Shown: positions 25,137-39,096 of the stretch, piece by piece | Numbering within the stretch: position 1 is the first letter of the stretch | Layout: the number at the start of each line of letters is the position of its first letter | Source of the DNA: an uncultured Rickettsiales bacterium | Lineage (GTDB): Bacteria > Pseudomonadota > Alphaproteobacteria > Rickettsiales > CAZNNM01 | Direction: 5' to 3' | Assembly (NCBI GenBank): GCA_964574415.1 | Contig: CAZNNM010000009.1 | Location: 4,975 to 68,974 of the forward strand | Length of the DNA: 64,000 nt | Notes under the pieces: model-generated | The model's input: the letters and a program-made list of their open reading frames with translations, nothing else | Databases searched by the model: none | What the model was told of the DNA's origin: nothing | Program-made: the position numbers and the translations under genes

Positions 25137-25161
25137 GCTTTATAGTTGTAAACATTGCCGT

Positions 25162-25190
25162 ACCATATCCAATAGATGAAGGACTGTCAA
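25162..25190 (-). promoter_or_regulatory. sigma70-type promoter, cassette copy 1
   Basis: On the minus strand: TTGACA (25190-25185), a 17-nt spacer, then TATGGT (25167-25162), about 26 nt upstream of the lipoprotein start. The same hexamers and spacing recur in three other copies with unrelated spacer sequence. Confidence 0.6.
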
Positions 25191-25219
25191 TTTTCCCAAT
25201 TACCCAATAAGTTGTATCT

Positions 25220-25252
25220 TTACATAAAAAATAATGCAGATTTTATCTGCAT
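25220..25252 (-). terminator. rho-independent terminator after truncated gene B (cassette copy 1)
   Basis: Minus-strand hairpin ATGCAGAT-aaa-ATCTGCAT followed by TATTTTTTAT. The 8-bp stem is AT-rich, so it is weak. Confidence 0.45.
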
Positions 25253-25298
25253 CTTATTGATATATCTAAAGAGATAAGGTTGCACGTTTAAATTTAAT

Positions 25299-26612
25299 CT
25301 ATTGATATTGTGTTATTCTTAAATCAAAGATATTCCCATTAGCAAACCGTGACATGCTCTCAACATACATATCCGGCACCCGGAACTGTGTAGAACCCTC
25401 TAAGAAAATACCAAAATCACCACTGGCAAAGTTCTTAATCAGAACACTATTAGACGCTCCCTCATACACCTCATCAAAGGTCATAACGATCCCAGAACCA
25501 CTCGGATCAACAACACCCGCCTCATTCACCCGCGTAAAATACAACGTAACATCATCCCGAACCAACCGATAACGACCCTCAGCCTCCGCTATCTTCTCAA
25601 CAACACCTTCAACAGGGATTGTGGCGAACATAATCGTTCCACTGCGCTCCGCATCATCCACAACATCGTACCCGTTGTTATTATACGAAAAATAATACGT
25701 ATTCTTACCATGCGGATCGCGCAATAAATCATTGCCATAGCCGCCATCATGATGATCATCGCCATAACTGCCCAATAACGTGTCATTACCGCTCTGACCG
25801 TATAGCTCCACAGGCTGATACTCATTCGACGCATCCAAAACCTCTCCGTTCACGGTTCCTACATACGCCGTGTATTGGCCGTCGGGGAGTGATGCTACAA
25901 TTTTTGGTGTAGTAAACAGCGGCGAGGCAGGTATCTCCGTCATCTCCTCACGCACTTCTTGAAACGCCGTCAAAAACTCTGAAAACGGCCTTGTGCCATC
26001 AACGGAGCCGGGGATGTAACTCATGTCCAAATAAGAATCTATACCAGTACGGCTGCCCAGGGAGAGCGTCATGTTGTTTTGGATATGCGGCTCCTGACTC
26101 ATGATTTCCATGAGACGGGCGTGGTTGATCAGAGGGGCATCGTTCATGTGCTCTAACATGTTTAGTAAACTAAAGAATGCTGGCTTAATCTGACTTTCAT
26201 AATTATATGCCATATAAATGGCTGACCCAGCACCAACAGCAATTGCTGACACTACCCCAACTGATGCACCTAACACACCTCCAGCTATGAAAAGAACTGC
26301 CTCTGCTAAAACTTGCTGCGCAATCAGGCCGCCAAAATATTTATTGGTAGATGAAATAATGACTTCATAAGGATGCTCTAAACTCTCAGGATTTGATTTA
26401 AACTCTAAATAATATGATAGAACACCATTAGGAATTTCAAGCAATACCTTAACAGTCACACCAGCGGGACTCGCAGATAATAAGGTATTTAATGTTTCGG
26501 TTACAAATGCTGTAGAAACTGTATAGACACGAGCAAGGCAGTCAGGATCAGTTCGGCAAGCATCATCTGTCTCAGGTGCATTATCTGGCTCATTGTTTGG
26601 TGTATCTGGCAT
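25299..26612 (-). CDS. truncated paralogue B of protein A (different Gly-zipper-like head, RTX-like turn and first blade only)
   Basis: 437-aa ORF. From PKIVASLPDGQYTAYVGTVNGEVLDASNEYQPVELYG onward it is colinear with A aa ~230-450. It ends right after ANGNI with a cassette-encoded tail FDLRITQYQ*. Confidence 0.65.
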   Translation of the reverse strand: MPDTPNNEPDNAPETDDACRTDPDCLARVYTVSTAFVTETLNTLLSASPAGVTVKVLLEIPNGVLSYYLEFKSNPESLEHPYEVIISSTNKYFGGLIAQQVLAEAVLFIAGGVLGASVGVVSAIAVGAGSAIYMAYNYESQIKPAFFSLLNMLEHMNDAPLINHARLMEIMSQEPHIQNNMTLSLGSRTGIDSYLDMSYIPGSVDGTRPFSEFLTAFQEVREEMTEIPASPLFTTPKIVASLPDGQYTAYVGTVNGEVLDASNEYQPVELYGQSGNDTLLGSYGDDHHDGGYGNDLLRDPHGKNTYYFSYNNNGYDVVDDAERSGTIMFATIPVEGVVEKIAEAEGRYRLVRDDVTLYFTRVNEAGVVDPSGSGIVMTFDEVYEGASNSVLIKNFASGDFGIFLEGSTQFRVPDMYVESMSRFANGNIFDLRITQYQ

Positions 26613-26626
26613 TTTTTTCTCATTAC

Positions 26627-36555: not shown

Positions 36556-38014
36556 CCAGCGACACTAACGCATCCACTCGCAAGCCCACAATCTCAACCC
36601 GCCGCTTGCTCAAATCTATCCCAAAATCACCATTCTCAAATTCCTCCACACGAACACTATGCGAAGAACTCTGCGCTTGAATAACCAGGTCACTCCCCTG
36701 CATCCCAAGATTAAACGTCCGCCCGTCATGCACCATCGTGCACGAAACCTCGCTCACACACGTAGGCGCATCCGTGCCAAAAAGACGGTCGCCCATAAAA
36801 ATCTGGTTAGCAGGAGCATTCTCGTCAGCAATAACATCCTCATCGGCAGTCACACTATCAGGCAAAAACTTATACTTATTAACAGCTCTCACATTCTCAT
36901 AACGATCACTACCACCAAAATCAGGGATGTCATAATTCCCTTCCGTAGTGATAACCCTATCTCGTTTATTCGTCGTGCCGAATATCTCAGCATTAGATAA
37001 ACCATGCGTCAGGATCGTTACGCCAGTTTGAAGTTCAGGGCTTGGCAAGCGGTTTAGTTTCTCGGAAATAAAGGCACTACGATACGCGGCAAAATTATTC
37101 CCATAATGCTCTTGAACGCTTATCGAGACACCATTAATATTCGCCCACTCAGGATCAGCGGCCCAACGGGCAGCTATGTATTTTTCCCAGTAGTAAGGGT
37201 TCTGGTCATAATTCTTGTACTGATTATAACCACTCGTATCCACTAACGTTCCAAACGGCCAAACATCAGGCTCGCTATATACTGTTGGCAAATCTTGGCC
37301 AGGCTGGAATTGTTGGAAGATAGGAATCATACGGTGCTGGCCCGTAAAAGAAAAACTATATCCATAATAAATATTACCAGGTTGATCGCTCATGCCGTCA
37401 ATGGTCATATATGGTGAATATACCCTATACATCTTCCCAACATGAGTATTGGCAGTACTAACTGCATTAGGGGCCGCATTAAACGTCACCGTATTTGCAT
37501 CAATCCATGCCATAGCATCTGAAGCAAATGTACCATCAATAATAAGATTTTGGATATTGGGACGCGAACCAGGACTTTCAAAATTCCGAACGGGAACTTT
37601 ATCCATTGCTCCAGATAGCTCCGCCAGAAATGCCCCTAATGAATGTCCCGTGTAACTCAAATGCTCACGTGGCCCTAAACCGGTAACGCGGAAATATTCT
37701 GCTTTTGCGGCATTGATGAAGGGGATGGCATTCTCATGAAATTGTTGGGTTTGCCAATCTAGTAATGCCAACGCTATATCATCGCCAACATCAGCAAAAA
37801 TATTATCTGTTCCAGCATGTGCTATAATAAGCTGCTTTGTAAAATTATTTATATACGCTCTGCCAAAATAGCCATTTGCAGACCATCCTCCATCTTGGGA
37901 ACTGAGCAAAATAGACCAATCACTGGGAAGCCGTCCTTCAGGCAAGAAAACATCATCTTCCGGATTATTGTAACACTCAACACTAAATAATGCATATTCA
38001 TAGTTCTTAACCAT
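36515..38014 (-). CDS. truncated lipase-head paralogue (second class-3-lipase-like head plus constant region, truncated at the first NGN blade)
   Basis: 499-aa ORF. The head contains YTGHSLGAFLAELSG and is about 60% identical by eye to the E head. nt 36590-37039 are identical to E nt 34696-35145. The ORF ends in a short unrelated tail (DGGVDRSGYVYC*) where E has GNGNIALLG. Confidence 0.7.
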   Translation of the reverse strand: MVKNYEYALFSVECYNNPEDDVFLPEGRLPSDWSILLSSQDGGWSANGYFGRAYINNFTKQLIIAHAGTDNIFADVGDDIALALLDWQTQQFHENAIPFINAAKAEYFRVTGLGPREHLSYTGHSLGAFLAELSGAMDKVPVRNFESPGSRPNIQNLIIDGTFASDAMAWIDANTVTFNAAPNAVSTANTHVGKMYRVYSPYMTIDGMSDQPGNIYYGYSFSFTGQHRMIPIFQQFQPGQDLPTVYSEPDVWPFGTLVDTSGYNQYKNYDQNPYYWEKYIAARWAADPEWANINGVSISVQEHYGNNFAAYRSAFISEKLNRLPSPELQTGVTILTHGLSNAEIFGTTNKRDRVITTEGNYDIPDFGGSDRYENVRAVNKYKFLPDSVTADEDVIADENAPANQIFMGDRLFGTDAPTCVSEVSCTMVHDGRTFNLGMQGSDLVIQAQSSSHSVRVEEFENGDFGIDLSKRRVEIVGLRVDALVSLGDGGVDRSGYVYC

Positions 38015-38028
38015 ATTAATTCTCTATC

Positions 38029-38410
38029 TTAGCTATGATTAAAAGTTAAAAACTGTTGCATGAACCATCCTAAAAGCAGCAACAACCCTCCCAAAAAACC
38101 GATTAGAATAACACTTACTCGTGTTAGAGTTTTCAGAAACTGGCTACTTGTATTGGCGCTGTTTTTCCATATTATAAAAAGTGCAAGTAAGCAGTAGCAT
38201 ACAGCTATAGAAAAATATATTGTACCAAACCAAAATTCATTATACCGACCAAATGCCTCATGAATAGACGGATACAGATAGCTCCACAGATAAATCATAG
38301 CTGTTACAAGAGCACTTGATACAGCTACCCCCCCAACCCCAGAACACAATCCAGAGCTTTTCCTCGCCTCTCCAACACCGTTTTATATGATTTACAAATC
38401 CAGACAACAT
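38029..38410 (-). pseudogene. frameshifted paralogue of the 36124..36528 membrane protein (G7 tract)
   Basis: ATG 38410 opens MLSGFVNHIKRCWRGEEKLWIVFWGWG, matching MSIVNHLKRCWKGEVRLWIVFWGWG in the paralogue. The frame is then lost at a run of 7 G on the minus strand (7 C on the plus strand, 38328-38334). The rest of the homologue (the 106-aa ORF 38029..38349) is in the adjacent frame, and G6 would restore a single ORF. Confidence 0.7.
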
Positions 38411-38442
38411 CTTCTCTTCCCATAGTTGTATTTCGCAACCGC

Positions 38443-38471
38443 ACCATACCTAACAGCCCAACCACTGTCAA
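38443..38471 (-). promoter_or_regulatory. sigma70-type promoter, cassette copy 4
   Basis: On the minus strand: TTGACA, a 17-nt spacer, then TATGGT, about 33 nt upstream of ATG 38410. GGAAGAG lies before the ATG. Confidence 0.55.
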
Positions 38472-38595
38472 CTTTACCGATTCACCAATAAGTTATACTT
38501 TCTGGCGGATATCCGCTCGCATGATGCTATAACTCTCTGGTATATAAAAAGAGTAATGGTTGTGTTTTTAGCGCTTTGGCATAAATAGAATATTG

Positions 38596-39096
38596 CTAGG
38601 CAGCTGATGAATACGTTGTATTCCCATTCGCCAAGGAAATCATCGCATCCACCCGTAAATCAGGAATAGCATAACGGCGCTGGCTCAAATCTATCCCAAA
38701 ATCACCGCTCTCATAACCCTTAACCTTGATGCTATGCGTAGAGTCCTGGGCTTGGATGACTAAATCTCCATTCTGAACGGAGACGCTATAGGTTTTTCCC
38801 TTATGGGTCGTGGTGCAGGATATTTCGCTGGCACATTCAAAGCTGCTTGTGCCGAACTGCCCTTCATCAATATCAATACAGTACGATGGCCAGTAAGCGG
38901 CAAGGTGAGATACGATGCAGGAAGGTGAATACCAAAATAGGTACTGACTTATTTTGAAATAATTGCCGTCATTTTTGGACTTGATCGGCGTTGTTGCATG
39001 GCGATAAAATACCCTGTCATCAGCCCAAGGATGACAAGCATTCATAACACCTATGTATTTTTCTAATGTTATCTTGGGACTGTCACATTCTGACAA
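38596..39096 (-). pseudogene. chimeric remnant ORF F (unrelated 5' part with MITE fragment, out-of-frame patch of gene A, E-like segment)
   Basis: nt 38874-38938 are identical to gene A nt 23033-23097 but are read in a different frame. Downstream, FGTSSFECASEISCTTTHKGKTYSVSVQNGDLVIQAQDSTHSIKVKGYESGDFGIDLSQRRYAIPDLRVDAMISLANGN is colinear with E. It ends with the tail TYSSAA*. nt ~38975-39000 match the MITE terminal sequence CTTGATCGGCGTTGTTGCATGG. Confidence 0.65.

Follow-up and report, generated by a model that had tools for sequence, protein, structure and literature searches.

In Borrelia, paralogous genes of the erp/mlp type on cp32 have upstream and promoter regions that are common to the family and are duplicated along with the genes, and the contact-dependent inhibition (CDI) loci cdiA-CT/cdiI, like the Rhs and MafB loci, contain arrays of orphan toxin/immunity cassettes. 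The Correia repeat enclosed elements (CREEs) of Neisseria generate a TA target duplication and occur in many dispersed copies. Their terminal inverted repeats and their mobilization have been described, and they are intergenic repeats of ~100-190 bp that can provide promoter hexamers, a hairpin with effects on transcripts and a possible protein-binding site and can alter the expression of neighboring genes (PMC2649163). Here we describe four repeated intergenic units, U1 to U4, in a 64,000-nt stretch of an uncultured Rickettsiales bacterium (assembly GCA_964574415.1, contig CAZNNM010000009.1, positions 4,975 to 68,974; hereafter the window), where each unit places a sigma-70-like promoter sequence within a tandem array of giant genes, small genes and giant-gene fragments (named as in Table 1). 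We consider it likely, from the alignments, that U1 to U4 are paralogues, all derived from a single ordinary intergenic region and spread by local duplication and recombination, and not copies of a mobile cassette.

As in the Borrelia erp/mlp families, a promoter-bearing region appears to have been copied with a gene family, is more conserved than its surroundings and stands ahead of different genes; the present locus differs in being one chromosomal tandem array of giants and small membrane proteins, with mosaics that cross over in the promoter core. It resembles polymorphic-toxin arrays in its truncated fragments of large secreted-protein genes lying among small genes, in recombination at conserved handles and in signs of ongoing conversion, but the fragments end inside the conserved central module of the giants rather than in variable C-terminal toxin domains, and the small genes stand behind their own predicted promoters and precede a giant partner rather than follow one. 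Small genes do follow fragments here, but behind a terminator and promoter, and they are coupled to the next giant (the s291 stop overlaps the g1395 start as ATGA, and the pairing of s165 with a giant is kept in a related locus, L006). On our reading the array would consist of tandem, lineage-specific operons, each joining a small membrane or lipoprotein gene to a giant effector-like gene, and a unit would run from the final codons and stop of the gene before it, through a hairpin that in U1 and U2 is a true intrinsic terminator, to a 10-nt box, a sigma-70-type promoter and a short leader.

Scanning the window for TTGACW-N17-TATGGT returned four matches, all on the minus strand and exactly where the first-pass annotation had placed four promoters (25162-25190, 27177-27205, 27805-27833 and 38443-38471); shuffled sequence gave an expectation of 0.05 matches and reached four in 0 of 100 shuffles. 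The longer pattern AACTTATTGG-N13-TTGAC-N18-TATGGT recovered only the same four sites, even with 3 mismatches allowed, and the 10-nt box AACTTATTGG occurs in the window only inside the four units. The repeated unit itself, first put at ~150-200 bp, is borne out by alignment as four intergenic regions of 171-190 nt that are homologous over their whole length, and an nhmmer profile of the unit recovered U1-U4 at E 1e-47 to 1e-50 with no fifth copy in the window up to E = 10. All four lie within 13.5 kb on one strand, leaving the other ~50 kb of the window empty of the unit. Exact-pattern scans of JGI metagenomes and GTDB species-representative genomes gave 0 unit matches, BLAST of the unit against plasmids and phages gave no match, and matches of the unit profile to 88 fetched loci were confined to Logan contigs of the same organism; the search for dispersed copies, which found none, thus covered the window and these public collections but not the rest of the source genome.

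The mosaic structure of the units was read from a self-BLAST map together with segment-wise pairwise identities. U1 and U2 are 88% identical upstream of the box (from the stop codon through the hairpin) and 86% identical from box to -35, with 29% identity in the spacer and 47% in the leader, and the corresponding values for U1 and U3 are 39-50% upstream of the box, 89% from box to -35, 70% in the spacer and 79% in the leader, including the first codons. U3 and U4 are about 40-55% identical upstream of the box, where they have the same kind of gene tail, and 86, 76, and 48% identical in the three following segments. The upstream halves are thus of two types, A in U1 and U2 (tail FDLR..Q* plus terminator) and B in U3 and U4 (tail T(V/T)YSSAA* and no T-run), and the downstream halves of three, alpha (U1 and U3), beta (U2) and gamma (U4). 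Such combination of upstream and downstream halves across a conserved core is, judged from these alignments, the signature of recombination within the core. Spacers that had been called unrelated proved homologous in U1, U3 and U4 (52-76% identical; U1/U3 12/17, U3/U4 13/17, U1/U4 9/17), U2 alone being at random level (4-5/17 against the others).

All four units start at the NGN codon triplet (ATGGGAAT, invariant) of a central-module fragment, and the central module of the giants contains two short NGN repeats (AATGGGAAT), NGN-1 and NGN-2. Tail A follows NGN-1 in f437 and NGN-2 in f154, and tail B follows NGN-1 in f166 and NGN-2 in f192; because each tail is found after both repeats, 243-nt deletions or crossovers between the two NGN repeats are indicated. 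The extent of homology differs for each pair of units and reaches into the flanking coding sequence. We propose that the units owe their spread and their reshuffling to local tandem duplication, unequal crossing-over and gene conversion between paralogous operons, with crossover points of two kinds, the conserved promoter core and the NGN repeats of the central module.

One duplication junction can be followed to the nucleotide. At U1, the f437 central module (block C, 25488-25327) is contiguous with block B (tail, terminator, box and -35) and block A (box to start, down to 25120), while at U3 block A is followed directly by C at a join at 27763/27762 with microhomology of 0-1 nt. This A|C join has the form of a classic tandem-duplication junction, and the duplication would have placed the start context of s291 ahead of a codon inside the central module, giving rise to f154, in which the s291 leader and first codons (MAT) run in frame into codon ~376 of an f437-like central module. 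The first-pass annotation had noticed an identical start context encoding MLYMAT in the first and third copies, fused to two unrelated coding sequences. The same GTG-TTA-TAT-ATG-GCA-AC is indeed present in both, but the likely start is the ATG (MAT...) and not the GTG, and the fusion is the duplication junction itself (MLYMAT|VMTFDE); the f154 product on record (NCBI, Logan; P0157) likewise has 151 aa starting at the ATG. In Logan contigs assembled independently from two runs, the segments g1066-f192-U3-f154 and U2-s165-f437 agree at 100% identity, so the U3/f154 arrangement is not a misassembly; SRA samples SRR9674365 and SRR9107545 contain the organism. Over the 54 codons that it has in common with f437, f154 shows a synonymous divergence (dS) of 0.54, a nonsynonymous divergence (dN) of 0.03 and dN/dS of 0.06, with 4, 1, and 12 differences at codon positions 1, 2, and 3; it is apparently a maintained predicted gene kept under purifying selection. 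An AlphaFold2 model of f154 had a predicted local distance difference test score (pLDDT) of 56, too low for a fold search. The case resembles the formation of new genes at tandem-duplication junctions in that f154 captures the s291 promoter, leader and first codons and joins them in frame to an internal f437-like codon, and differs from that system in that there is only one chimera here, a predicted gene.

In a second tandem duplication (period 1894 nt), a small gene was duplicated together with g1375 residues 1-491. Its f499|s143 junction (about 36515-36555) keeps ~16 nt of U4-type leader and no promoter, which means that duplication endpoints vary and that the promoter is carried along only if it lies inside the duplicated segment.

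As for function, the -35 reads TTGACA in U1, U3 and U4 and TTGACT in U2, and the -10 TATGGT, which keeps A2 and T6, follows at exactly 17 nt in 4/4 units, in agreement with a sigma-70 promoter. The -10 ends 32-52 nt ahead of the ATG of s291, s165, f154 and s50, in noncoding sequence and on the strand of the gene. That the hexamers and their spacing look selected was well founded: within the unit 11/12 hexamer columns are invariant vs. 46/166 (28%) of the other columns (Fisher p = 1.6e-5). The hexamers are not the only conserved part, as had been supposed, since the box (10/10 columns, p = 6e-6, in a post hoc comparison), a stretch A.T..G.AAA ahead of the -35, positions in the leader and the codons of the NGN triplet are also invariant. 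A CACAACC motif described as conserved reads so in U2-U4 but is TGCAACC in U1. In U2 the spacer has decayed to random-level identity (23-29%), yet 5/6 positions of the -35, 6/6 of the -10 and the 17-nt spacing are intact. For a neutral yardstick we used 54 codons of f154/f437, which pair U1-side with U2-side just as the unit's upstream half does and are assumed to be of equal age. From stop codon to -35, 14/115 noncoding positions differ between U1 and U2, compared with 13/34 synonymous sites in those codons (p = 0.0016); the noncoding unit diverges ~3x more slowly than the adjacent synonymous sites. In L006, where a short lipase + central-module gene is followed by a 154-nt intergenic region, an s165 homologue and a full-length giant, the intergenic region contains TTGACA-N17-TATGTG and the AACTTATTGG box is absent. 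On this evidence we think it quite likely that the four units contain working sigma-70-type promoters, with the -35, -10, 17-nt spacing and box held by purifying selection.

The box was correctly recognized as conserved upstream of the -35, but its distance is 13 nt in all four units and not about 10. It lies at about -58 to -49 from the predicted transcription start, where UP elements and class I activators act in Escherichia coli, and the core is most likely to be a housekeeping-type promoter with an upstream activator or UP-like site. In 4/4 units the box doubles as the right-hand arm of an inverted repeat (CAATAAG...30-36 nt...CTTATTG) whose inner hairpin differs by unit type. The hairpin terminators claimed for the first two copies are present, each with a 9-bp stem followed by T6; U3 and U4 have short hairpins without a T-run (fold z-scores of -1.85 and -0.48) that do not qualify as rho-independent terminators. 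In an informal comparison, the box showed no convincing match to direct repeats of the kind bound by the response regulators PmrA or CpxR. XRE-type helix-turn-helix genes near the giants here and in another locus (L005) are unrelated to each other, and no candidate regulator is conserved with the locus.

The first-pass annotation had proposed a portable promoter cassette, that is, a mobile element of the miniature inverted-repeat transposable element (MITE) or Correia type that would insert at new sites with its promoter and terminator. The same core does stand ahead of three unrelated small genes (s291, s165 and s50/s106) and one chimeric open reading frame (ORF), each copy is preceded by a giant-gene fragment cut at NGN, which could resemble a target preference, and the f499|s143 junction is free of the element. 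However, no target-site duplication was found, the unit ends have no terminal inverted repeats (the conserved one is internal), and an interrupted giant gene never resumes beyond a unit. Since no giant gene continues past a unit, the units are not insertions, and on these three observations the cassette was rejected. Pairwise homology, moreover, passes out of the unit into flanking coding sequence to an extent that differs for every pair, leaving no common sharp ends, and the "empty" f499|s143 site is not a precise excision, given the leader that remains there. Unlike CREEs, the units lack dispersal in the window, being four copies on one strand with none elsewhere in it or in the public collections, and the copies share the coding sequence that flanks them. 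A mobile origin is thus very improbable.

A different alternative is that the units are non-functional duplication scars, alike through recent duplication or conversion, with a coincidental hexamer match, and several observations weigh to that side or against the main reading. Generic sigma-70-like sites are no commoner in the region than in shuffles (51 vs. 47.9), which makes a consensus match alone weak evidence, and TATGGT matches only 4/6 consensus positions. The four units are linked by gene conversion, very recent at this locus (a 96%-identical block, dS 0.087, and a 65-nt patch of 100% identity, both described below), and their conservation could partly reflect recent homogenization rather than selection. 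The starts behind U1 and U3 have a poor Shine-Dalgarno sequence; neither U3 nor U4 has a convincing terminator, so that read-through could make some promoters redundant; and more than one order of duplication events fits the array. Scars would, however, leave unexplained why the hexamers and spacing survived in U2 beside a randomized spacer, why invariance is so much more frequent in the hexamer columns than in other columns, and why noncoding divergence falls ~3x below the synonymous rate of the coding block next to it; the position and strand of the units and the terminators that bracket the genes also match transcription units. We regard this explanation as unlikely. About as doubtful, if not slightly more so, is an account in which the core acts at another level and the promoter is secondary, either with the box and CAATAAG pairing as an outer stem that would govern the 3' end, stability or processing of the upstream transcript or with the box as the operator of a dedicated regulator of the array. 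It would accommodate the inverted repeat in every unit, the A-to-G changes in the U4 left arm that retain pairing as G-U on the transcribed strand, and a box that is invariant at 10/10 positions and confined to the units. Yet the outer-stem consensus is weak (-2.4 kcal/mol, covariation term -0.06, with 1 compensatory and 2 broken pairs), in U1 and U2 the inner terminator would stop a transcript ahead of the box, no regulator is conserved with the locus, and the invariant -35 and -10 at 17 nt remain without explanation. An Rfam search of 24000-39500 at E <= 1 gave no match, and RNAalifold from box to start reached about -2 kcal/mol with no conserved RNA structure; a structured RNA or riboswitch was rejected on these two results. 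Duplication and recombination of an ordinary promoter-bearing intergenic region is thus the reading with which we proceed.

Table 1. Coordinates (window positions) and properties of the intergenic units, genes and fragments of the array.
Feature	Position	Strand	Description
U1	25128-25298	-	171 nt; f437 stop to s291 ATG; upstream half A, downstream half alpha
U1 -10 TATGGT	25162-25167	-	
U1 -35 TTGACA	25185-25190	-	
U1 AACTTATTGG box	25204-25213	-	
U1 terminator hairpin	25233-25253	-	followed by T-run
U1 inverted repeat	25204-25259	-	
U2	27125-27314	-	190 nt; f154 stop to s165 ATG; upstream half A, downstream half beta
U2 Shine-Dalgarno		-	AGGAAG ahead of ATG at 27124
U2 -10 TATGGT	27177-27182	-	
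U2 -35 TTGACT	27200-27205	-	
U2 AACTTATTGG box	27219-27228	-	
U2 terminator hairpin	27248-27269	-	followed by T-run
U2 inverted repeat	27219-27275	-	
U3	27771-27956	-	186 nt; f192 stop to f154 ATG; upstream half B, downstream half alpha; weak hairpin
U3 -10 TATGGT	27805-27810	-	
U3 -35 TTGACA	27828-27833	-	
U3 AACTTATTGG box	27847-27856	-	
U3 inverted repeat	27847-27900	-	
U4	38411-38595	-	185 nt; f166 stop to s50 ATG; upstream half B, downstream half gamma; GCGGATATCCGC palindrome
U4 -10 TATGGT	38443-38448	-	
U4 -35 TTGACA	38466-38471	-	
U4 AACTTATTGG box	38485-38494	-	
U4 inverted repeat	38484-38541	-	
Terminator after g1395	~20025-20052	-	strong, intrinsic; -22.9 kcal/mol, z -4.1, U6
g1395	20077-24264	-	giant; N-terminal domain rich in transmembrane (TM) segments, RTX-like repeat, central module, Pro/Thr-rich linker, Glu-rich C-terminus
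s291	24261-25127	-	small lipoprotein-like gene, first after U1; predicted signal peptide ending in lipobox LVSC
f437	25299-26612	-	short g1395 paralogue, 42% identity over 333 aa; ends just past NGN-1 with tail A (FDLRITQYQ*)
s165	26627-27124	-	small membrane protein, weak DUF3592 match; first gene after U2
f154	27315-27770	-	chimeric ORF, 151 aa from ATG; ends after NGN-2 with tail A
f192 region	27957-28713	-	promoterless 5'-truncated g1375-like remnant, ~residues 311-533; tail B (TVYSSAA*) after NGN-2
g1066	28733-31933	-	giant; VWD domain
g1375	31981-36108	-	giant; GHSLG lipase-like N-terminus
s143	36124-36528	-	small 4-TM gene directly upstream of g1375, without a unit of its own
f499	36515-38014	-	short lipase-type g1375 paralogue, residues 1-491; ends at NGN-1, overlaps s143 start
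s50/s106	38029-38410	-	one small 4-TM gene, s143 paralogue; first after U4
f166 region	38596-39096	-	composite remnant; g1375-like central-module piece ending after NGN-1, tail B (TTYSSAA*)

On the minus strand the array reads g798 - f166 - U4 - s50/s106 - f499 - s143 - g1375 - g1066 - f192 - U3 - f154 - U2 - s165 - f437 - U1 - s291 - g1395 - terminator. The promoters had been proposed to drive the small genes and the downstream giants, and their place and strand fit this, with transcription from them being what we infer from position. The predicted transcripts would run from U1 through s291-g1395 to the terminator behind g1395, from U2 through s165-f437 to the terminator in U1, from U3 through f154 to the terminator in U2, and from U4 through the tightly packed string s50/s106-f499-s143-g1375-g1066 of ~10 kb, in which g1375 and g1066 are probably transcribed from U4 by read-through. 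The small genes behind the units (s291, s165 and s143/s50-s106) are mutually unrelated, and s291 has no Pfam match. In L006 an s165 homologue of 163 aa occupies the equivalent position ahead of a giant gene, and the counterpart of f437 is homologous N-terminally and continues for >1159 aa. The s50/s106 gene is split into s50 (38258-38410) and s106 (38029-38349) by a +1 frameshift at a G7 run (38328-38334); G6 in place of G7 would restore an intact ~127-aa s143 paralogue, and the gene may be a pseudogene, or the run may be a sequencing error or prone to slippage.

The giants g1375, g1395 and g1066 (1066-1395 aa) differ in their N-terminal domains and have in common the central module, a Pro/Thr-rich linker and a related Glu-rich C-terminal region, the C-terminal regions of g1375 and g1066 being 71% identical. 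The short forms f437, f499 and f154 have start codons and are under purifying selection, and are probably functional; f192 has an open frame with no start codon upstream of an internal GTG. Between f499 and g1375, residues 1-330 have diverged to dS 2.6 (omega, i.e., dN/dS, 0.13) and residues 330-490 only to dS 0.087, and a 96%-identical block (34655-34954 vs. 36549-36848) lies inside the otherwise ~70-80%-identical duplication. This pattern suggests that the central modules of adjacent paralogues have recently undergone gene conversion. A 65-nt patch at 23023-23087 in the g1395 coding sequence (GIHLPASYLTLPLTGHRTVL) is 100% identical to 38874-38938 in the f166 region, 15.8 kb away, where it is out of frame and its flanks are not homologous; its appearance is that of a templated patch or gene-conversion tract of very recent date.

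Pfam searches of the array proteins gave weak RTX, VWD and DUF3592 matches only, with no pretoxin or toxin domain. Word-indexed protein searches with the giants returned self matches only, probably because they were swamped by RTX and low-complexity words, and an exhaustive search found mostly the N-terminal lipase-like domain. A protein-guided genome scan detected relatives at <=32% identity in Legionellales, Coxiellaceae, Rickettsiales, Holosporaceae, Amoebophilus and other metagenome-assembled genomes, a level at which phylogenetic footprinting of the unit is impossible; as far as these searches show, the giant-gene family is lineage-specific. Just upstream of the array, g798 (39189-41585) encodes a protein of 798 aa that has internal 108-nt repeats and an mTERF domain of the eukaryote type (Pfam E 7e-17), and a 72-nt repeat links the 3' part of this gene (39391-39462) to 13393-13464 at 79% identity. 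Proteins of the mTERF type are typical of host-associated bacteria, and together with the relatives of the giants and the Glu-rich C-termini this one suggests that the source bacterium is host-associated; on these features it would be taken as probably Legionellales-like, while the assembly is classified in Rickettsiales. The Glu-rich C-termini recall, by analogy, the E-block class of Dot/Icm substrates (PMC5802825).

The related loci L006 (1-5532; Logan SRR24874943) and L003 (3475-4638; Logan SRR21902431) come from related uncultured organisms in which a short lipase + central-module gene, an intergenic region, an s165-like gene and a giant are laid out in the same way. Adjacent central modules in L006 are nearly identical to each other, and the L003 fragment begins at DFGGSDRYENV, the same point as f192. 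Elsewhere in the window, a plus-strand ORF of 344 aa between g1395 and g1707 (18968-20002) contains ~3 tandem 108-nt (36-aa) repeats and has no Pfam match. A 3129-aa protein of the TpsA/filamentous-haemagglutinin type is encoded at 2419-11808 (TPS domain E 1.6e-41); window positions 1-300 are an 86%-identical repeat of 3540-3839 in this gene, a hint that another tpsA-like copy or cassette lies past the edge of the window. Copper-resistance genes of the CopA type occupy 43049-45386, and an aryl-polyene-type lipid or pigment biosynthesis cluster at 52292-63831 includes genes for two KAS enzymes, an ApeP-like dehydratase, a reductase, a halogenase-like flavoprotein, an RND-like exporter and an acyltransferase.

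More speculatively, the whole array might serve as a recombination-driven variation system for giant host-targeted proteins, in which the promoter core and the NGN repeats would be selected handles that re-assort units, small genes and fragments (f154, f192 and f166) into expressed giants and the box would also be the operator of a dedicated array-wide regulator; we hold this to be improbable. In silent-cassette loci of the antigenic-variation kind, promoterless truncated copies donate sequence to an expressed gene; here f192 and f166 are promoterless and 5'-truncated and conversion tracts are present, which may or may not reflect donation of that kind.

The units reveal no new kind of genetic element, and the constrained box and the duplication-born chimeric gene are side results of their analysis. 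For annotation, the gain is four likely transcription units for orphan giant genes, and the 10-nt box is nominated for a regulator search. For the gene family itself, the locus would be a clean illustration, with its own internal controls, of how the same promoter can persist and find new uses as a multigene family is rearranged: hexamers, spacing and box do not change, whereas spacers and flanks decay or are exchanged.

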